Shown here piece by piece: positions 6,866-33,804 of a stretch of DNA of 64,000 bases. Under the pieces are notes generated by a model, which was given only the letters and a program-made list of their open reading frames with translations, was not told where the DNA came from and searched no databases. Origin of the DNA: an uncultured delta proteobacterium (GTDB taxonomy: Bacteria; Desulfobacterota; BSN033; UBA1163). The translations under genes were made by a program, and so were the position numbers. Positions within the stretch are counted from its first letter, which is position 1, and the number at the start of each line of letters is the position of its first letter. The DNA is taken from contig CAVPSJ010000004.1 in NCBI GenBank assembly GCA_963708295.1, forward strand, positions 320,001 through 384,000, given 5' to 3'.

Positions 6866-8266
6866 ATGAAATGTAAAAGTACAAGAGGATTCCGGTTTAC
6901 GGGGACACTCCTGCTGGCTTTCGCTTTTACCGCGGGTTGCGCCCACTATCCGGTCAATCCGCCGATGAAAGAGGTTCACCCTGAGGCAGGTTACAGATCC
7001 ACCTCCATGAAAGCTCCCGAAAATTCAGACAGCCTATTTCTGTTTCTCACTTTTTCAGGCGGAGGGATGCGTGCGGCTGCACTTTCCTATGGGGTTCTCG
7101 AAGAATTGCGAAGGGCTGAAATCGTTCTTGAAGGAAGAAAGCGGCGGCTTCTGGATGAGGTGGATGGCATATCGAGTGTCTCCGGAGGAAGTTTCACGGC
7201 AGGGTATTACGGCCTCTTTGGAAAACGCATCTTCGAGGATTTTGAAAGCACGTTCTTGAAGAAGAACATTCAAAGAGTTCTTGTCTTAAAAGCCCTGCTC
7301 AATGTCACCAATTGGGTACGGCTTTTTTCACCGGCCTTCGCCCGGAGTGATCTGGCTGCTGAATACTATGACAAGCGTATTTTCGAAGGAGGCACCTTTG
7401 GCGACTTGGCAGCCCGAAAAGGCCCCTTTATCCTCATCAACGCGACGGATATGACCCATGGGACCAGGATAGCGTTTACTCAAGAGGTCTTTGATGTGAT
7501 TTGTTCAAACCTTTCTCTTTTCCCCGTAGCAAGGGCTGCCGCTGCCTCGTCAGCCGTTCCTATGGCGCTCACTCCCATCACATTGCGGAACTACGCCGGG
7601 ACCTGCGGTCTTAAGACATCGGAGGAATTCGAGAAGATGCCGGAAGGCCGTGATATTTCAGTGCGACAGTTTTATCTGTTCAATGACTTTACTCCATTCT
7701 TGGATTCCAAAAAGAAGGCCTATATTCATCTGGTCGATGGAGGGGTGGGAGATAATTTGGGTTTAAAGGCCCTTCTTGACCGGGTCATCGCCAGGGGAAG
7801 CGTCTGGGGAGCAATCAAAGGGACTCCGATGGAAAAGGTCCGCAAGGTGGTCTTTATCGTGGTGAACGCTGAGACAGAACCCGATCCGAAGTGGGACAGG
7901 ACAGAGAGGGTTCCTACCTTCGGCGTCATGCTTGCCTCTTACTCCTCCATCGCGGTCGACCGGTACAACGAAGAGACCATCGCTCTCTTGAAAGAAAGCG
8001 TCGGTCCCTGGGCGGATGAGATCAGGGATCAGAGATGCAACGGAGAAGTGGTTTCTGCCTCGCCGGGTTCTTGCGGTGATATTCAATTTTACGTCATCGA
8101 AGTGAAGTTTGATGCGTTGAAGGATGAAACGGAGCGAATGCACTTCAAGAGGTTACCCACTGCCTTGAAGCTAGCTCCTGAGGAAGTGGACCGGTCGCGG
8201 GATGCCGCCCGCCGCATCCTTGCGGAATCCGCGGAATTCCAGCGCCTGCTCAATGACCTGAAGTAG
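6866..8266 (+). CDS. Patatin-like phospholipase, lipoprotein
   Basis: SGGGMRAA, SVSGGS, DGG motifs; lipobox TAGC; ATG 6866 after GGAGG. Confidence 0.88.
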   Translation: MKCKSTRGFRFTGTLLLAFAFTAGCAHYPVNPPMKEVHPEAGYRSTSMKAPENSDSLFLFLTFSGGGMRAAALSYGVLEELRRAEIVLEGRKRRLLDEVDGISSVSGGSFTAGYYGLFGKRIFEDFESTFLKKNIQRVLVLKALLNVTNWVRLFSPAFARSDLAAEYYDKRIFEGGTFGDLAARKGPFILINATDMTHGTRIAFTQEVFDVICSNLSLFPVARAAAASSAVPMALTPITLRNYAGTCGLKTSEEFEKMPEGRDISVRQFYLFNDFTPFLDSKKKAYIHLVDGGVGDNLGLKALLDRVIARGSVWGAIKGTPMEKVRKVVFIVVNAETEPDPKWDRTERVPTFGVMLASYSSIAVDRYNEETIALLKESVGPWADEIRDQRCNGEVVSASPGSCGDIQFYVIEVKFDALKDETERMHFKRLPTALKLAPEEVDRSRDAARRILAESAEFQRLLNDLK

Positions 8267-18033: not shown

Positions 18034-19317
18034 TCAGACATAGTCGATTTCTGCTTTCTCAAGCAGAAAGCTCAAAGCTCTGTCCCGGAGGATTCCGGCC
18101 TTCACTTCAGGAAGAAGTCCATTCTTTTCGTAGTATTGTTTGACCACTTCGAATTTTTGGTGCGTCCTCTCCGACATCTCTTTCAGGCGATCCTCTGCCT
18201 CCTGATCGGTGACCGCAATCCCCTCCTGGCCCGCAATTTTGTCAAGGATAAGAACAGTCCTGACTTGCTTCTGGGCCATCGCCTTATAATCCTCCTGGAG
18301 CTTCTCCTCCGAGACGCCCAGATTCTTGAAAACCACCCCCTGAGCAGCCAGTTTCAACTTCGTGTCCGAGACCATGGCCTTGGCCTGCTCTTCCACCAAG
18401 CTTTCGGGAACCTCGAAGGGATTTGCCTCAAGCAGTCGATCGACCACCGAATCCTTTAATTGCCGTTCTAATGCGAGCTCTTTCTCCTTTTTGATGTCTT
18501 CCGTCAATTTCGCCTTTAATTCTCCCAAAGACGAATAATCCCCCAGATCTTTCGCAAATTCATCATCCAGCGGAGGGAAGATCTTTTCCTTTATCTCCTT
18601 GATCTTTACCTGGAAGGAGATGGTTTTCCCCGCCCATTTTTGATATCCATAATCCTGAGGGAACGTGACCTCAATCTCCTTCTCTTCCTCCGGTTTCAGT
18701 CCGATGATCTTCTCTTCGAAGGCAGGGATAAATTGTCCGCTTCCCACCTCTACGGTAAAATCAATCGCCTTCCCTCCCTCCAAGGGTTTGCCATTCAAAC
18801 TCGCCTCATAATTGAGGATGACAAAATCTCCTGCCTGGATGGTTCTCGCCTCTGAAACGGTTTTTAAATTGGAATGGAGGTTCTGGAGGGCTTTCAACCG
18901 CTCCTCCACCTCTTCGTCTTTCACCTCTTCTCTCTTCCCTTCGATCTTCAACCCCGTATACCCTTCTAATTTGATCTCGGGTTTGACCTCAATCACAGCG
19001 GAATATTGAAACGGCTTTCCTTGTTCAAATTCTCCAGGATCGACCACGGGCGGAGAGACGGGCTCGAGATGCGTCTCCGTGAGGGCTTTTGGATAGGATT
19101 CTTCTATCAATTTGCGGACGACCTCTACCTTGACATGATCTTTAAAATACCTCTCCAGAATGTTTCTTGGAACCTTTCCGGGCCTAAACCCTTTGATCTT
19201 GGCCGTCCTCCCCAACTCTTTATAGATGGATTCAACTTCCTTGCCGACCTCGTCTTCCGGAATTTCTACGGCTATCTTCTTCTTGATCGGACTGATCTCT
19301 TCAGCACTGGCTCTCAT
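18034..19317 (-). CDS. tig: Trigger factor
   Basis: [15 protein letters not shown]; tig-clpP-clpX order. Confidence 0.97.
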
Positions 19318-19339
19318 GAAATATCCCCTCAAATGTGAA

Positions 19340-19475
19340 AATACGAAATCCGAAATTCTAAATTCGAAACAAATCCTAAATTCAAATGATCAAATTTCTA
19401 AAACTCTTCGTTCCACTTGTTCTATTTCGGTCATTCGAATTTGTTTCGTGCTTCGTATTTCGTGATTCGAATTTG
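19340..19475. repeat. AT-rich heptamer-periodic long inverted repeat
   Basis: AATACGAAATCCGAAATTCTAAATTCGAAACAAAT... mirrored by ...ATTTGTTTCGTGCTTCGTATTTCGTGATTCGAATTT. Confidence 0.6.
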
Positions 19476-19488
19476 CTTGAAATTGACT

Positions 19489-19575
19489 TGGTGCCGAGGG
19501 CGGGACTCGAACCCGCACAGTCTCACGACCACGAGATCCTAAGTCTCGCGCGTATTCCAATTTCGCCACCCCGGC
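19489..19575 (-). tRNA. tRNA-Leu(TAG)
   Basis: GCCGGGGTGGCGAAATTGGAATACGCGCGAGACT-TAG-GATCTCG, long variable arm, GGTTCGAGTCC, CCA end; typical position upstream of tig. Confidence 0.96.
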
Positions 19576-19687
19576 CCGTGACGTTGCTAGCGTCTTCAGG
19601 CGAGACGTCGCCTTATTTGTGCCCGCGCCCTTCCTGCAACCCGCGAATAATCAAGAACTTCTTGTGATAATAATAACTTAATTTAAT

Positions 19688-19716
19688 ACTATAATCCATT
19701 TGGTCCGTGCTGTCAA
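19688..19716 (-). promoter_or_regulatory. Sigma-70 promoter of tRNA-Leu/tig
   Basis: TTGACA-17 bp-TATAGT on minus strand. Confidence 0.75.
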
Positions 19717-19833
19717 TCAAACTACGTTCCCCTCCCCTCTCCCGCTGGAGGAGAGGGGAGGGGGGAGGGAAAAAACTGCTTACAAAAACTTCCATGATAG
19801 TTGATTTTGTTACAATATGTTTTATGATAGAGC

Positions 19834-19905
19834 ATGGATAAGATCATGCAAAGAATGGCCAATTTTTATTATCGGTACTACTTTTTCGTTAGAGGCCTCC
19901 CATAG
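19834..19905 (+). CDS. Tyr/Phe-rich attenuator leader peptide MDKIMQRMANFYYRYYFFVRGLP
   Basis: 7 of 8 consecutive codons are Phe/Tyr; follows TTGATT..TATGAT promoter (19801-19828); stop codon lies within the antiterminator arm. Confidence 0.8.
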   Translation: MDKIMQRMANFYYRYYFFVRGLP

Positions 19906-20000
19906 GTTCTCTTCCCGACGGATGAGAAGCCATGGGTGATGAATGGCCCCATGGCTTTTTTATTTTTTGAAGCCACGGAGCCAGCTCTGTGGCTTTTTTT
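19899..20000 (+). terminator. Attenuator: antiterminator plus two tandem intrinsic terminators
   Basis: CCCATAGGTTCTC(19899-911)/GAGAAGCCATGGG(19924-36); T1 AGCCATGGG/CCCATGGCT+T-run; T2 AAGCCACGGAG/CTCTGTGGCTT+T-run. Confidence 0.8.
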
Positions 20001-20034
20001 GTTCTGAGGATAAGCAAACGATGGAGGAACAGGG

Positions 20035-22197
20035 ATGACAGAGTTCAGATATTCGAATGTCGATCGTGAAATGGAGGTCTACGGCTATGACTCCATGGTC
20101 AAAAGCCATTGCCGGATGTGTCATGGGGGTTGTGGGGTCCTTGTCTACCTCAAAGACGGCAAAGTGGCAAAGATCGCCGGTGATCCCGATTGTCCCATTA
20201 ACCATGGAACGCTCTGCACCAAAGGGCTTGCCTCGGCACAGCTGGCTTATCATCCGGACAGGCTGACCCACCCCGTCAAAAGGGTCGGGCCAAAAGCGAG
20301 CGGTCAATGGGAACGGATTTCATGGGATGAAGCCCTGGACGCCATCGCAAATCGAATCCTCGAATATAAAGAAAAACACGGGCCTGAATCCGTCGTATTC
20401 GGCTACGGGACAGGCCGCGAAAATGAGGCCGTGATCTACCGCATCGCCAACCTCCTCGGGTCCCCAAACGTGCTGACGGCAGGCCATTTCTGTTATGGCC
20501 CGCGGGTGTCGACGGGCATCATCACCTGCGGCACGAATCCTATTGTCGATTATGAGAATTTCCCCAAGTGCGTCATGATGTGGGGAAATAACGTCACGAT
20601 CAGCAATGCCGACGAATATAAAGGCGAGTCCTTCTCCGTCGCTCTCGACCATGGCGCCAAGCTCATCGTGGTTGACCCCAGGCTCACTCGTCCGGCTGCA
20701 CGGGCAAACGTCTGGCTCCAGTTGAGACCCGGCACAGACGCAGCCCTTGCCCTCGGAATGCTCAACGTGATCGTTAACGAAGAGCTTTATGACAAGGAAT
20801 TCGTCGAGCATTATACCCACGGCTGGAATCCTTTTGTCAAAAGGGTGAACGAGTATCCCCTTGAGAAGGTCGAAGAGATCACGTGGGTTCCGAGAGAAAA
20901 GATCAGGGAGGCGGCAAGGCTCTTCGCTACGACCAAACCCGCTGCCATTCAGTGGGGTGTGGCCATCGAGCAGCAAATGAACTGCGCAGACAATGACCGG
21001 CTATTGATGTTCCTCTTAGGGTTGACCGGCAACATCGATGCACCCGGCGGCCAGGTTCTCAACCGGACGCCAAATATCGTTAATGTAGGCCATTTCGGCG
21101 CCCATGGCATGCTTCCCAAGGAACAGTTCGCAAAACGATTGGGCGGGGATCGTTTCCGTCTTGCCTCGCGGTTCGCCATCCTTCAGCCGAAATGTGTCTG
21201 GGATGCCATCCTCGAAGAAACACCCTATCCCGTGAAAATGCTCTTTCTCATCAGTTCCAATCCTGTCATCACCCGTGCCAATGCAAAAGAGGTTTACCGT
21301 GCCCTTGAGAAAGTTGAATTCATGGCGGTGGCCGATTTCTTCCTGACCCCGACCGCGGAACTTGCCGACATTGTGCTCCCCGCTGCAACCTGGCTTGAGA
21401 TGGATTATATCGGCGACTTTTGGAAGCGTCACGGCTATATCCTGCCCCGGCGCAAAGTGATCCAGGTGGGGGAGTGCCGCTCAGACCACGAGATGCTCAA
21501 TGATCTTGCCCACCGGATCGGCCAGGGCCCCTACTGGTGGGACAACTTCGAGCAGGCCCTTGATTATATCCTTCATCCGATGGGTATCGCCTGGGATGAT
21601 TTCAAGAAGATGAATTATATCAGGGGAGAGGTGAAGTATTACAAGTACAAACAGGGAGGATTTTCCACTCCGACCAGAAAGTTTGAGCTCTTCTCCACAG
21701 CCCTCGAAAAGATGGGGTATGATCCTCTTCCCCAGCACAGGGAACCGCCTGAAAGCCCGGTGAGCGCACCGAAGCTTCATCAGGAGTATCCTTATATCCT
21801 CATTACAGGTGCGCGACCGCCCGGTTTTTTCCACACAGAAAACAGACAGGTCCCCCGACTCAGAGAGCTTCACAAGGACCCCATCGTTGAGATCCATCCG
21901 GATGTCGCTCTAAAGGAAGGGATTAAAGAGGGCGATTGGGTCATCATCGAATCCCCGAGAGGGAAAGTGAGACAGCGGGCGAAACTCGCCCTTGGACGGG
22001 ATCCCCGGATCGTAGCGGCCCAGCATGCGTGGTGGTTTCCGGAAAACAGGAATCCCGGTCATGGTTGGGACGAATCCAACATCAACATCCTGACTGACAA
22101 TGCTCTGGAGGGCTGTGACCCGGCAATGGGGGCATCGAATATCAGGACGCTCCTTTGCAGGATACGTCCCGAAAAGAAGGAGGTCAGCCATGAATAA
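20035..22197 (+). CDS. Mo/W-bis-PGD oxidoreductase catalytic subunit, acetylene-hydratase-like clade, cytoplasmic
   Basis: CRMCHGGC..CTKG 4Fe-4S motif, ISWDEALD, LRPGTDAALA, ADIVLPA, VEIHP; 720 aa; no Tat signal. Confidence 0.9.
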   Translation: MTEFRYSNVDREMEVYGYDSMVKSHCRMCHGGCGVLVYLKDGKVAKIAGDPDCPINHGTLCTKGLASAQLAYHPDRLTHPVKRVGPKASGQWERISWDEALDAIANRILEYKEKHGPESVVFGYGTGRENEAVIYRIANLLGSPNVLTAGHFCYGPRVSTGIITCGTNPIVDYENFPKCVMMWGNNVTISNADEYKGESFSVALDHGAKLIVVDPRLTRPAARANVWLQLRPGTDAALALGMLNVIVNEELYDKEFVEHYTHGWNPFVKRVNEYPLEKVEEITWVPREKIREAARLFATTKPAAIQWGVAIEQQMNCADNDRLLMFLLGLTGNIDAPGGQVLNRTPNIVNVGHFGAHGMLPKEQFAKRLGGDRFRLASRFAILQPKCVWDAILEETPYPVKMLFLISSNPVITRANAKEVYRALEKVEFMAVADFFLTPTAELADIVLPAATWLEMDYIGDFWKRHGYILPRRKVIQVGECRSDHEMLNDLAHRIGQGPYWWDNFEQALDYILHPMGIAWDDFKKMNYIRGEVKYYKYKQGGFSTPTRKFELFSTALEKMGYDPLPQHREPPESPVSAPKLHQEYPYILITGARPPGFFHTENRQVPRLRELHKDPIVEIHPDVALKEGIKEGDWVIIESPRGKVRQRAKLALGRDPRIVAAQHAWWFPENRNPGHGWDESNINILTDNALEGCDPAMGASNIRTLLCRIRPEKKEVSHE

Positions 22198-24184
22198 ATA
22201 TGCGCTGATTATCGAAGAGTATGCCTGCTGGGGGTGCAGGACCTGTGAAGTCGCCTGCCAACAGGAATACAATCCGGTCGAGTCGAAAGACGGGGTCAAG
22301 TATCTCTCGGTTTGGCCGGATGGTCCCAAGGTCATGAACGGGAAGCTTGATTTCATATGGCGTGTGAACGTCTGCAAACATTGTGCGGAGCCCCTCTGCG
22401 CCAAGGCCTGTCCCGAAGATGCCATTACGAAAGACCCAAAGACAGGCATTGTCCTCAGCGAAAGAGAGAAGTGCAGCGGCTGTCAGGCAGTCATGGGTGA
22501 GTCCCGAGCTGAAAAGCAGGAAACCTCTCCGTGTAAGATGGAATGTCCGGCGCACAACAATGTTCAGGGATACGTGAATCTTGCTGCCAAGGGGAAGTTT
22601 CAGGAAGCTCTGCAACTGATCAAGGAGACCAGCCCCTTCCCGTCGATCTGCGGGAGGATCTGTCATCACCCCTGTGAAACGGACTGTCACCGGTCTCAAA
22701 TCGACGAATCCGTAGCCGCCCACTCCATTGAGCGCTTCCTGGGCGATTTGGATCTCAATTCAAGCACCCGCTATCAGCCCCGCATAAAAGCCAGGAAAAA
22801 AGAGAAAGTCGCCGTTGTCGGATCCGGCCCTGCCGGATTAACCTGTGCCTACTATCTTGCACGAGAAGGCTACCCGGTAACGATCTTCGAAAAAGCTGAC
22901 CTGCTGGGAGGGATGCTTGCAATGGCCATCCCCTCCTACCGTCTTCCCTCGGAAGTTATCGAGGCTGAAATCCGGCTCATTCGCGATCTGGGTGTGACCA
23001 TGAAAACCGGCGTGGAGGTGGGCAAAGATAAAACCGTTGCTCAATTGCGCCAAGAGGGCTTCAAGGCCTTCTTCATCGCCATCGGAACACAGGAGTGTTC
23101 GCGACTGGGAATTGAAGGCGAGGACCTGAAGGGCGTCTATCAGGGATTGGACTATCTCCGAAGTATCAAGCGTGGAGAATCGTTGGCCCTGGGGAAGGAC
23201 GTCGTCGTCATTGGCGGAGGGAATGCCGCAATGGATGCCGTCAGGTCAGCCCGCAGATCGGGAGCCGAAAACGCCACGATTCTCTATCGCCGGGGTCTGG
23301 AGGAAATGCCTGCAAGACCTGAAGAGATTGAGGAATGCCGGGAAGAAGGGATTTCCATCCAAACCCTGACTCAACCTGCGCGATTCATCGGCAAGAATGG
23401 AGAAGTAAAAGCGATCGAATGCGTAAAAGTGCGCCTGGCGGACCCGGACGGGAGTGGCCGGCGGAGACCCGAGCCCATCCCTGCCTCGGAATTTACGATT
23501 CAAGTCAGCGCCGTCATCACGGCCCTGGGGCAAGAAGCGGACTGGGCCTGCCTGACCCCGGAGTGCTCCTGCACGTTGACCCCATGGGGAACAATGAAGG
23601 TGGACCCTTTGACGCTTCAGAGCGAGGATCCTGACATCTTTGCGGGCGGAGATGCGGTCAGAGGCCCCCAGACCGTTATCGAAGCGATTGCAGACGGGAG
23701 ACGGGCAGCGGTATCGATCGATCGATACATCGAAAGCCGGGGCCTTCGATCGGATGGAGATATTGAATTGAAAGCAATCACGACCCCGCAGAAAGGGAAA
23801 TACGATCCGTCTCCCCGGTCTCAGATGCCCCGTCTGGAGGCTCAAGAGCGAACCAACAATTTCGCGGAGGTTCAAAAAGGCTTCACCAAGGAGACGGCCA
23901 TGCAGGAGGCACAGCGGTGTATCTCCTGCGGCAGTTGCTGCATACAGGCCTGTCCCTATGGCGCCATTGCCTTTGACCCAAAGACCGGAAAGATCCAGAA
24001 GTGCAACCTTTGTCATCACCGGGTGACGAACGGACTCTATCCTGCCTGTGCGGACAACGTCTGCCTCGCCCATTGCATCTACTTCGGCGATCCCGCCGAG
24101 ATTGAACAAAGGATTCTGGAGAAAAGGAAGATCAGAGGAGGCTGGGGAGAAATCCTTCCTAAGGCTTTCATCGGCTCGAGGTGA
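22190..24184 (+). CDS. Fe-S/flavoprotein subunit: DmsB-like ferredoxin with inserted GltD/NfnB-like FAD-NAD(P) module
   Basis: CWGCRTCEVAC, CKHC..PLC...CP, then PCKMECPAH, GRICHHPCE, GSGPAG, GGGNAAMD, FAGGD, then CISCGSC..ACPYGAI, KCNLC. Confidence 0.88.
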   Translation: MNKYALIIEEYACWGCRTCEVACQQEYNPVESKDGVKYLSVWPDGPKVMNGKLDFIWRVNVCKHCAEPLCAKACPEDAITKDPKTGIVLSEREKCSGCQAVMGESRAEKQETSPCKMECPAHNNVQGYVNLAAKGKFQEALQLIKETSPFPSICGRICHHPCETDCHRSQIDESVAAHSIERFLGDLDLNSSTRYQPRIKARKKEKVAVVGSGPAGLTCAYYLAREGYPVTIFEKADLLGGMLAMAIPSYRLPSEVIEAEIRLIRDLGVTMKTGVEVGKDKTVAQLRQEGFKAFFIAIGTQECSRLGIEGEDLKGVYQGLDYLRSIKRGESLALGKDVVVIGGGNAAMDAVRSARRSGAENATILYRRGLEEMPARPEEIEECREEGISIQTLTQPARFIGKNGEVKAIECVKVRLADPDGSGRRRPEPIPASEFTIQVSAVITALGQEADWACLTPECSCTLTPWGTMKVDPLTLQSEDPDIFAGGDAVRGPQTVIEAIADGRRAAVSIDRYIESRGLRSDGDIELKAITTPQKGKYDPSPRSQMPRLEAQERTNNFAEVQKGFTKETAMQEAQRCISCGSCCIQACPYGAIAFDPKTGKIQKCNLCHHRVTNGLYPACADNVCLAHCIYFGDPAEIEQRILEKRKIRGGWGEILPKAFIGSR

Positions 24185-24386: not shown

Positions 24387-25097
24387 ATGGATCATAAGAG
24401 TTGTTTCGGTTCAATCAAGGAGGTCACCCTCAGCAATAGCCAAACCTCTATCCAGTCAAGACCCGAGTGCCGAACCTGCCAGGAAATCCGCGACTGTTTG
24501 CGCCAGACCAGACAGCTTGTGGATGAGCAGAATGAAAAAGACGAGCTGAAGAAACAGAGCTGGATTACTGAAATTATCGACCACTCTTTTGTCGTCTCGA
24601 ATGAACTCGGCTCCTGCTTGCTGAAGTTTCTGAATAAAATTTACAGCTCATCCATCGGGGCAATCCTTTTTAAGAACCTCTTTCTATTTTTTGACGTCCC
24701 GCAGAATACCCTGTCTTCAAACCTGTCCATCTCCATCTCCCGGACGATGATGGGCTTGCTCCGGGGAGAGAAGGAAGAATCAAGCCCTCCTCCCAATCCG
24801 CAAGCTTTCTATCAGCGGCGGGCACCCGATGAAGGATTTATTCTCCGGATCATTCTTTTCCAGAAGTCTTTTCCCAACTCCCAAGAGGCGAACATGGGAA
24901 TGATCGCTTATGAAGCGGCCCGTGCGCTTGCTTCCGACGATCTCGGGATCAAGCAGATTCTTCAGGTTCTCCCCGAGTCTGAAGCCAGCGCATTCAGGAG
25001 AATGGATCCCGAGGCCCGAATAAAATGGCTGATTGGGAAATGGGGTTTTCTGGAAGAGTATGGAGCCTTGAAAAAAATAGTGGCGTTATCGGAGTAA
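24387..25097 (+). CDS. Hypothetical protein with N-terminal Cys cluster
   Basis: 236-aa ORF, SD AAGGAG, SCFG...CRTC....DC. Confidence 0.65.
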   Translation: MDHKSCFGSIKEVTLSNSQTSIQSRPECRTCQEIRDCLRQTRQLVDEQNEKDELKKQSWITEIIDHSFVVSNELGSCLLKFLNKIYSSSIGAILFKNLFLFFDVPQNTLSSNLSISISRTMMGLLRGEKEESSPPPNPQAFYQRRAPDEGFILRIILFQKSFPNSQEANMGMIAYEAARALASDDLGIKQILQVLPESEASAFRRMDPEARIKWLIGKWGFLEEYGALKKIVALSE

Positions 25098-25217: not shown

Positions 25218-25335
25218 AATCGGAACCGGGTGCTGAAACCGGTTCAGCATGACGGTTTAGTTCTGGCCTTTTTGTCATCCCGAACTGGGTTCGGGATCTC
25301 TCTTTGGGTCTAAGAATTTAGGCGCTAAAGCCCTG
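25218..25335. repeat. About 120-bp REP/MITE copy (inverted copy at 33571-33690)
   Basis: Shared TGCTGAA..TTCAGCATGAC and GTCATCCCGAA..TTCGGGATC hairpins and TAAAGCCCT end. Confidence 0.6.
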
Positions 25336-25351
25336 CCCCGGGCGGGGCTGT

Positions 25352-26014
25352 TTATTGTTTTGACAGCCTCCTTCCCTTCAATTCTGGCTTCTTTAAAGCT
25401 GCCCCAAGGAGCGGTGGAGATTTTTTCACAGGGGGAATGTTTTCCGTATTTCTGGCAGGGGTACAGATCAGCACGTTTCTCTCGTCTCTCTCGAAAGCAC
25501 ATTTTTCTTCGAGGACGGTCTTTAGCTTCTTCCGTGCCCTGTGAAGCCTCACTTTGACGTTCTCAATCGTTATTCCAAGAATTTCCGCGCTCTCCTGATG
25601 GCTGAACTCCATCATATCGAAAAGGACAAGCACGGTTCTCAGAGGCTCCGGCAAAAGGTTGATCTGGTTCTGAACACATTCTCCCATTTGACGTTGTTCC
25701 ATTTCTTCTTGAATGCCGAGCCCTTTTTGAATCAGGGCTTCTTTAAGATCTCCCGTTTCTTCCTGGTCTATGCTTTCTTCTTTGCGAGATTTCTTCAACC
25801 CGCGAAAATGGTCCTGGCAGAGGTTATGGGCAATCCGAAATATCCAGGGAGACAACCGGGAGGGATCTCTCAGGCTTTCAACGTTCTGCTGAACTTTCAA
25901 AAACGTTTCCTGGATGATGTCATCCGCCGCCCATTCCTCCTTTACAAGGGCCAGGATGAACTTTCTTACTCTCGAATAGTGCTGATCGTAAATTTCCCAG
26001 AATTCCATCTCCAT
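25352..26014 (-). CDS. ECF RNA polymerase sigma factor (SigZ-like)
   Basis: ADDIIQETFLK, WIFRIAHN, NVKVRLHRARKKLK, C-terminal C.FERDERN..IC. Confidence 0.88.
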   Translation of the reverse strand: MEMEFWEIYDQHYSRVRKFILALVKEEWAADDIIQETFLKVQQNVESLRDPSRLSPWIFRIAHNLCQDHFRGLKKSRKEESIDQEETGDLKEALIQKGLGIQEEMEQRQMGECVQNQINLLPEPLRTVLVLFDMMEFSHQESAEILGITIENVKVRLHRARKKLKTVLEEKCAFERDERNVLICTPARNTENIPPVKKSPPLLGAALKKPELKGRRLSKQ

Positions 26015-33522: not shown

Positions 33523-33804
33523 GAAAATGTTACTTCTTCACCAACCTTCCAAATCCCAAGTCACAAATAAAGGGCTTTAAAACCTAAACCCTAAAACCCA
33601 AAACCGGGATCCCGAAAGAAGTTCGGGATGACCAAGAGACTAGAACCGAATCGGGATGTCATGTTGAGCTTGTTTCAGCATCTGATTTATTTTTTCTGCT
33701 TCCAGAAAACGTACGTTTGACCTCCATCCATCCCGTCAAGAGGGGATAGACATCACGGGTTTTCAGATGCGGTCTAAATAAAACACGATTTTACGTTGAT
33801 GCGG

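Follow-up and report, generated by a model that had tools for sequence, protein, structure and literature searches.

The locus

This study concerns a putative transcription attenuator in front of a molybdenum/tungsten (Mo/W) enzyme operon in an uncultured delta proteobacterium (assembly GCA_963708295.1, 91% complete, here referred to as G000). The locus lies in a stretch of 64,000 nucleotides (nt) of contig CAVPSJ010000004.1, and this whole stretch is called the window throughout. A promoter, a small open reading frame (ORF) with a run of tyrosine and phenylalanine codons, and two successive terminator hairpins precede the first gene of the operon, and their coordinates are listed in Table 1.

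Table 1. Features of the leader and operon in the window, with sister leaders at other loci
Feature	Position	Strand	Description
Sigma-70-like promoter	19801..19828	+	TTGATT 19801-19806, 16-nt spacer, TATGAT 19823-19828; 9/12 in promoter scan
Leader ORF	19846..19905	+	19 codons and TAG (MQRMANFYYRYYFFVRGLP); start and frame common to L032 and L033
Regulatory codon run	19864..19887	+	TTT TAT TAT CGG TAC TAC TTT TTC; FYYRYYFF, 4 Tyr, 3 Phe, 1 Arg
Predicted hairpin 1:2 (anti-antiterminator or pause hairpin)	19885..19913	+	ORF end pairs with GGTTCTCT directly after the stop
Predicted antiterminator 2:3	19899..19936	+	CCCAT and TTCTC with GAGAA and ATGGG; encloses a small hairpin at 19912-19921
Terminator T1	19927..19968	+	10-bp core stem, 19927-19936 with 19948-19957, U-tract; about -15.8 kcal/mol
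Candidate second antiterminator 4:5	19945..19982	+	T1 3' arm with T2 5' arm; window copy 11 bp, 2 mismatches
Terminator T2	19969..20001	+	12-bp stem, 4-nt loop, U-tract; hairpin 19970-19995, -18.8 kcal/mol, z -4.9
Mo/W-bis(pyranopterin guanine dinucleotide) (MopB) catalytic subunit	20035..22197	+	720 amino acids (aa); PF04879, PF00384, PF01568; N-terminal 4Fe-4S motif
Partner subunit	22190..24184	+	664 aa; start behind AAGGAGG, overlaps MopB stop
Protein with no family match	24387..25097	+	236 aa; conserved beside MopB clusters; 200-nt gap before it
F/Y/W and WWW sister leaders	L114:2728-2801, 7493-7637; L095:9984-10060	L095: -	
Tyr-run leaders before DUF362	L095:13561-13677, L098:7881-7999, L096:11997-12115, L101:139-257, L063:14844-14962	L095, L096: -	

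A preliminary description of this DNA, made from its letters, had placed a Mo/W enzyme operon downstream of the leader, and the Pfam MopB domains of the first gene agree with this. The ATG at 20035 is preceded by a GGAGGAA ribosome-binding site. The catalytic subunit stayed under every NCBIfam cut-off, and no twin-arginine signal was seen in it by eye. Its partner resembles a ferredoxin, and a GltD-like FAD/NAD(P)H module of ~465 aa is inserted mid-protein. The partner occurs in two forms, either as a ferredoxin-like protein of 181 aa or with the ~465-aa module between residues 101 and 567; the 181-aa protein of relatives aligns to residues 1-101 and 567-661 of the 664-aa form. The long form was seen with G000, G034, G033 and G008, in a comparison with loci L003, L004, L005, L007, L008, L010 and L011. 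Whether the 236-aa protein belongs to the operon is uncertain. The genes upstream of the leader, namely tRNA-Leu (19489-19575), trigger factor, clpP and clpX, all lie on the minus strand, so the two terminators cannot serve an upstream plus-strand gene.

The leader and its orthologues

Both the TTGATT/TATGAT promoter and the FYYRYYFF frame of the preliminary description were found as proposed, and a matching promoter arrangement is also present in G034 (L032). Three in-frame ATGs had been put forward as starts, and all of them (19834, 19846 and 19855) are present and share the stop codon TAG at 19903-19905; the one at 19834 is a non-conserved alternative, and the orthologous leaders start at the equivalent of 19846. 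Aromatic codons make up 7/8 of the run. When the stop-to-stop frames of G000 were searched for 8-codon windows with at least six Phe or Tyr codons including at least three Tyr, 24 matches were obtained genome-wide. By inspection, the window leader is the only match that has a start close by, a stop no more than 6 codons away and terminators downstream. Folding of the complete leader gives a z-score of -3.9, and the feature exceeds chance.

A protein search covering 61 related genomes detected MopB orthologues of 84-95% identity; apart from G000, 12 genomes have one, and 450 nt upstream were inspected at 12 orthologue loci (L001-L011, L025). The leader is present at 3/12 loci: in the window, in G034 (L002/L032) and in G002 (L009/L033). 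The G034 and G002 leaders carry the aromatic run FYYYYYFF, their distance from stop to T1 equals that of the window, and both terminators are present. Comparison of the last 16 codons and the stop among the three leaders revealed four variable columns with synonymous changes only (TAC/TAT twice, TTC/TTT once, and one Gly), three of them within the aromatic run. Six columns change the residue, five outside the run and the sixth being the Arg/Tyr column within it, where the CGG (Arg) codon of the window corresponds to Tyr in both other leaders. In addition, a 1795-nt DNA contig of a relative, assembled from a public metagenome of sediment (run X1), is shorter by 3 nt with the frame preserved, the missing letters being precisely those of the CGG codon. 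The conserved Y/F-rich small ORF with synonymous variation that the preliminary description asked for is thus present, TAT and TAC as well as TTT and TTC being interchanged while flanking codons change residue. The refuting case named there, a run that is merely T-rich DNA, fails on these synonymous changes and on the whole-codon deletion in the relative.

In a maximum-likelihood tree of 24 MopB proteins, G000 and G034 form a pair (100/97) which G002 joins (83/66), and the leaderless G033 is the sister of this trio (100/98). A single recruitment of the leader is the simplest reading of this topology; the window copy would have arisen by duplication of the aminotransferase leader described below, and been recruited once, in the common ancestor of the three genomes. 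The leaderless relatives would have to control the enzyme operon in some other way.

The terminators could instead be controlled by a protein, by a tRNA in the manner of a T-box, or by a riboswitch, for example one for the molybdenum cofactor, with the small ORF being incidental. Molybdoenzyme operons are often under cofactor riboswitches, and translation of the leader is predicted here from sequence. However, scans against Rfam 15 gave nothing except tRNA, neither for 18500-21000 at E-values up to 10, where the only hit was the neighbouring tRNA, nor for five related loci at E-values up to 0.1, and hence no Phe-leader model was matched either. The ~160-nt leader is also too short for a T-box, and the codon conservation of the ORF together with the fixed distance from stop to T1 need translation as their explanation. 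Such translation-independent control is therefore considered very improbable.

A family-wide aminotransferase leader

The counts across genomes given in this and the following sections include related organisms and are not independent. With the DNA of 19801-20034 as a query, matches were obtained in 52/55 genomes of the family, nearly all of which cover only query positions ~120-200, where the two terminators lie. Inspection of 30 loci placed 27 before a pyridoxal phosphate (PLP) aminotransferase and three before MopB. The aminotransferase has 397 aa, and its NF005305 scores of 561-568 bits exceed the cut-off of 376. The module linked to it begins with a TTGACA promoter and a Shine-Dalgarno sequence, continues with an ATG and a run in which F and Y alternate, and closes with a variable hairpin, T1 and T2; G000 has its own copy on the minus strand at G000:C8 ~88735-88890. 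The leader stop lies 10-14 nt from T1 in 28 of the 29 loci where a leader ORF was picked, and the leader peptides vary across the family in length and in their non-aromatic residues. In G028, a second aminotransferase paralogue lies behind a Tyr-rich leader (L103:123-230, G028:C361) and the usual copy behind a Phe-rich one (L034).

A covariance model of the 3' two-thirds of the element (R1) matched 53/55 family genomes and 46/151 genomes sampled from the phylum (41/146 outside the family). Seven loci outside the family were inspected, six of which lie before an orthologue of the aminotransferase and one before a periplasmic binding protein. R1 scores were 102-137 bits for the aminotransferase leaders and 103-116 bits for the three MopB-linked copies. 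A scan of 185,579 species genomes for the exact pattern, with the window's own record left out, yielded 56 loci: 47 before the aminotransferase, two before MopB (G034 and G002), four before a metallo-beta-lactamase (MBL)-fold protein, one unresolved, and two in Bacillus infantis, which look unrelated. The records are metagenome bins named Thermodesulfobacteriota, Deltaproteobacteria, Syntrophaceae or Syntrophorhabdus.

The aminotransferase leaders and the MopB-linked copies share the promoter type, the ORF layout, the P hairpin and near-identical T1 and T2 arms, and the window element is thus a paralogue of a family-wide aromatic leader that is absent from Rfam 15. The two groups differ in composition: Phe dominates the aminotransferase leaders (Y fraction 0.25-0.50 in 26/27), and the Y fraction is 0.56-0.62 in those linked to MopB. 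Aminotransferase leaders also end in His-Pro and use a 10-bp helix, termed helix A, whereas the window and G034 copies have a re-registered antiterminator.

Terminators and competing helices

The single terminator of the preliminary description proved to be two terminators in tandem, T1 and T2. The terminator scan missed T1 because its loop is longer than 8 nt. The pairing proposed there between the region of the leader stop and the 5' arm of a terminator was borne out: CCCATAGGTTCTC (19899-19911) is complementary to GAGAAGCCATGGG (19924-19936) at 11/13 positions, and with RNAfold this helix forms before the 3' arm of T1 is transcribed. Its energy is ~-12 kcal/mol, computed for a slightly truncated piece. 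In the family, helix A pairs the last leader codons and the stop with the 3' half of the T1 5' arm over 10 bp; in the window this helix has two mismatches and is replaced by the 19899-19911/19924-19936 pairing. Hairpin 1:2 is part of the minimum free energy (MFE) structure both when the leader is free and when a ribosome is placed far upstream.

The 30 leaders (27 aminotransferase-linked and three MopB-linked) were aligned, and this alignment is called A1. T1 is paired in 100% of its cells, and T1 and T2 together in 99.4% of 627 cells, with four pairs changed on both sides. The homologue of antiterminator 2:3 is paired in 94.7% of cells and the 4:5 pairing in 95.8% across the family; taken together, the two antiterminator helices are paired in 95.3% of 657 cells, compared with 26-44% when one strand was slid. 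A1 has 41 invariant columns. This unusual conservation of the terminator sequences would also suit a main product acting in trans, that is, a small RNA or peptide released at T1/T2 as with Sinorhizobium rnTrpL/peTrpL, downstream control being secondary; two papers report functions in trans for attenuator RNAs and leader peptides (PMC6614838, PMC7298713). The invariance of the arms nevertheless fits, and would be explained by, each arm being used in two alternative helices, and the leader peptides vary in length and in non-aromatic residues. A trans-acting product is accordingly rated the least probable of the alternatives, with a very small chance of being right.

The effect of the ribosome was modelled by blocking the 5' part of the leader to 12 nt past the A-site codon, with an assumed footprint and equilibrium folding. 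Under this mask, the antiterminator was the MFE structure for at least one aromatic A-site position in 27/30 leaders, and with the A site on the stop codon T1 and T2 were the MFE structure in 30/30. In the stalled state, the T2 5' arm was taken by the T1 3' arm in 13/30 leaders, the window copy not being among them.

Proposed mechanism and comparison with known attenuators

Judging from these features, the element is likely to be a transcription attenuator of the trp/pheA type, in which the ribosome on a leader peptide senses how much charged tRNA-Tyr and tRNA-Phe is available, and we infer that read-through depends on translation of the leader and on Tyr/Phe supply. Transcription would start at ~19835, and a ribosome would translate the 19-codon leader. 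On reaching the stop at 19903 the ribosome would cover 19899-19913, the arms of T1 would pair, and T1 and T2 would terminate transcription before the gene. A ribosome stalled at the Tyr/Phe codons of 19864-19887 would mask region 1 and leave 19899-19913 free to pair with 19924-19936, in which case T1 would not form and the polymerase would read into the Mo/W operon. In most members of the family, the freed 3' arm of T1 could then capture the 5' arm of T2, and a single chained event would disable both terminators.

Classical attenuators are textbook matter for Trp, His, Leu, Thr, Ile/Val and Phe in proteobacteria. The pheA and pheST attenuators (pheL, pheM) consist of an ORF with Phe codons, a stop beside the antiterminator segment and an intrinsic terminator, and the position of the ribosome selects the helix. 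The window leader shares this layout of aromatic run, antiterminator-adjacent stop and terminator. Unlike pheA/pheST, the MopB-linked leaders are dominated by Tyr (4-5 Tyr and 3-4 Phe), the terminators are tandem with a possible chained second antiterminator, and the target is a Mo/W oxidoreductase operon rather than a gene for biosynthesis or for a tRNA synthetase; the host belongs to an uncultivated lineage of Thermodesulfobacteriota rather than to the gamma-proteobacteria. With respect to the trp attenuator (trpL), the window copy has all four regions of the 1:2, 2:3, 3:4 scheme. It differs in the amino acid sensed and in having a second terminator, and region 2 overlaps the last codons and the stop in most members of the family.

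In the last 16 codons, Tyr:Phe is 14:10 in the three MopB-linked leaders and 84:135 in the 27 aminotransferase leaders. When the 30 leaders are ordered by Tyr fraction, the three take ranks 27 to 30, L045 being tied with them at the top, and it is a reasonable inference that Tyr rather than Phe is the main signal of the MopB-linked copies.

Several observations weigh against an attenuator of this kind in the window. The Shine-Dalgarno sequence before 19846 is weak (GGATAAG) in comparison with that of G034. With the ribosome mask, the antiterminator of the window copy was the MFE structure only with the A site at 19882, and T2 still formed in that state; as the antiterminator is optimal at one ribosome position, this copy would have to depend on the order of co-transcriptional folding. 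Hairpin 1:2 competes with the antiterminator when 19889-19897 is free of the ribosome, and by a crude in silico measure the window copy is the weakest of the three MopB-linked switches. As to the covarying stems sought by the preliminary description, T1 and T2 have the four pairs changed on both sides; the antiterminator helices of A1 displayed no covariation above shuffles, because their arms are almost invariant. The Tyr shift is not significant (Fisher p 0.079) and comes from related sequences. The leader is missing at 9/12 MopB orthologue loci, so the enzyme is not intrinsically tied to it. Finally, contigs from run X4, recorded as RNA, and run X20, recorded as 'RNA? (probably DNA)', do not cover 19634-20035; those of X4 include pieces of the MopB gene of a relative over 20050-21481, 90-99% alike to the window. 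Only contigs were available from these runs, metatranscriptome libraries can contain DNA, and contigs cannot show RNA ends.

Part of this would also be expected of a decaying, non-functional relic of a duplicated aminotransferase leader, acting at most as a constitutive partial terminator. The antiterminator helix of the window has lost 2/10 family-consensus pairs, the 4:5 pairing has its two mismatches, MFE favours the terminators at nearly all ribosome positions, and one aromatic codon has become Arg. Decay is at odds, however, with the fact that three species-level genomes and metagenomic relatives have all kept the promoter, the start, the reading frame, the position of the stop and the two terminators, with the synonymous nature of the changes in the aromatic run, where the sole indel is a whole codon, and with a compensating extension (TTCTC with GAGAA) that restores the antiterminator to 11/13. 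A relic is thus regarded as improbable, and a working attenuator is preferred.

Sister leaders on other operons

Weaker R1 matches keep the two-terminator layout with different leader peptides. An F/Y/W-rich leader stands before genes for a DeoC/LacD-family aldolase and a 3-dehydroquinate synthase of the DHQS type (PF01959), followed in some genomes by chorismate mutase-prephenate dehydratase; we take the aldolase/DHQS pair to be the archaeal-type entry into the shikimate pathway. The genes trpD, trpE and trpG lie behind a WWW leader with tandem terminators. Trp codons on trp genes and all three aromatics on the common pathway match the prediction of the attenuation model.

Other sister leaders precede genes of less obvious function. 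A leader whose only aromatics are three or four consecutive Tyr residues, with two terminators, was found before DUF362 in five genomes, followed by biotin carboxylase and biotin carboxyl carrier protein (BCCP) where the contig continues. From its codons, it seems to be a Tyr-specific attenuator on genes without a known role in tyrosine synthesis. Phe-rich two-terminator leaders precede a 307-aa MBL-fold protein (L097:254-387, L100, L102, L151/L155/L159/L178). A Phe-rich leader, truncated where the contig ends, and two terminators were found upstream of a gene for a family III CoA-transferase (G000:C10:16479-16611, minus strand; L185); on contig 10 of G000 this gene appears split into frames of 135 and 307 aa.

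The molybdoenzyme and aromatic amino acid supply

The closest solved relative of the MopB subunit is acetylene hydratase (PDB 2e7z, E 5e-118), with which it shares the MopB fold and the N-terminal 4Fe-4S motif. A cysteine column is conserved in the alignment, and we take the residue of 2e7z in it to be a metal ligand. The residue after the second cluster cysteine is His in the window protein and Asp in 2e7z, this Asp presumably being catalytic in acetylene hydratase. Acetylene hydratase is a non-redox hydratase without a redox partner, whereas the window enzyme has a dedicated, co-translated electron-transfer partner, which makes a redox reaction likely. The replacement of Asp by His and the presence of the ferredoxin/GltD-like partner set the enzyme apart from acetylene hydratase.

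Some genomic neighbourhoods connect the enzyme with aromatic metabolism. In G012 the MopB orthologue divergently adjoins a long aromatic cluster with the order YYYY leader, DUF362, biotin carboxylase, BCCP, F/Y/W leader, aldolase, DHQS, pheA, WWW leader and trpD/E/G. In G009 and G006, a MopB paralogue of 58% identity, accompanied by an IclR regulator and a GltD-type partner, directly adjoins the same type of cluster. As a separate observation, the gene after pheA in the aro operon encodes a 525-aa protein for which a weak match to GNAT is the only one.

The distribution of genes for the last steps of tyrosine and phenylalanine synthesis was also surveyed. Prephenate dehydrogenase (PF02153) passes the cut-off in 2/55 family genomes versus 14/14 controls. 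Prephenate dehydratase (PF00800) was found in 26/55 family genomes and in all 14 controls, and was not found in G000 or G034. A weak PF02153 match in G000 (25 bits) was rejected as TyrA, the protein being 2-hydroxy-3-oxopropionate reductase. The alpha subunit of indolepyruvate:ferredoxin oxidoreductase passes the cut-off in 5/5 genomes tested. In the 91% complete assembly of G000, neither chorismate synthase (PF01264) nor DHQS-II (PF01959) was found, and G034, G002, G010 and G003 have both. The flanks of the aro cluster of G034 map to two different contigs of G000, and the absence may reflect a gap in the assembly or a genuine loss.

Counting against a link between the enzyme and aromatic supply, family genomes often lack a close MopB homologue: the best identities are 36-48% in G001, G005, G015, G019, G020, G022, G024, G025, G028 and G030, and G004 has no homologue at E 1e-100. 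A role as the family's general replacement of TyrA was rejected because so many of its genomes are without a close homologue. Together with the leaderless state of 9/12 orthologues, this suggests an accessory function of the enzyme rather than a core biosynthetic step.

Considering the codons of its leader, the enzyme may nonetheless help to supply aromatic amino acids. Salvage of an external aromatic compound into the Tyr/Phe pool would be a possible role that fits the facts. A more specific version, in which MopB and the NAD(P)H module carry out an O2-independent salvage step feeding a 4-hydroxyphenyl precursor into tyrosine synthesis, is speculative and has a low probability. One possible reaction in such a step would be the reductive dehydroxylation of a catechol-type or other oxidised aromatic compound. 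The catechol reading is based on the adjoining position of catechol dehydroxylases and acetylene hydratase in passages of a published study, where the catechol dehydroxylase clade is given as sister to acetylene hydratase (PMC7028382). Were the salvage reading true, the leader family would define an aromatic regulon that points to further missing enzymes among the DUF362, MBL-fold and CoA-transferase genes.

Relation to published attenuators

The preliminary description knew of no attenuator on genes of this kind, and full-text searches of open papers found none, an earlier description in subscription journals being possible. The same searches gave no leader peptide with tyrosine codons, no tandem-terminator leader-peptide attenuator, none on a molybdoenzyme, and no aromatic attenuator in delta-proteobacteria. 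A comparative paper of 2005 lists tyrosine under T-boxes rather than attenuators (PMC1262725), and PMC545781 gave no hit for leader peptide, tyrosine, tryptophan, phenylalanine or aromatic.

The attenuator family proposed here would span an uncultivated Thermodesulfobacteriota family and part of its phylum, with paralogues tuned to Phe, Tyr, Trp or mixtures. For organisms known from metagenome bins alone, it could mark a regulon in readable form, and it would tie several proteins without a known function, as well as an uncharacterised Mo/W enzyme, to the aromatic amino acid economy. The window copy would be a case of a regulatory module that was copied and retuned to capture a new operon.

Other features of the window

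Between the promoter region of tRNA-Leu and the leader promoter lies a near-perfect, G+C-rich inverted repeat (19726-19775) with a C/T-rich arm, a 13-nt loop and a G/A-rich arm. It has chance-level Rfam matches only, and in the DNA contig of the relative from run X1, 41 nt at this repeat are swapped for 71 other letters. Copies of another repeat, of ~220 nt, are located at 25224-25354 and 33572-33695 of the window (G000:C4:345224-345354 and 353572-353695). A stretch of G034 (L181:6347-6563) matches this repeat at 12 places in G000 with 75-88% identity, and the repeat may be a small mobile element or one resembling repetitive extragenic palindromic (REP) sequences.

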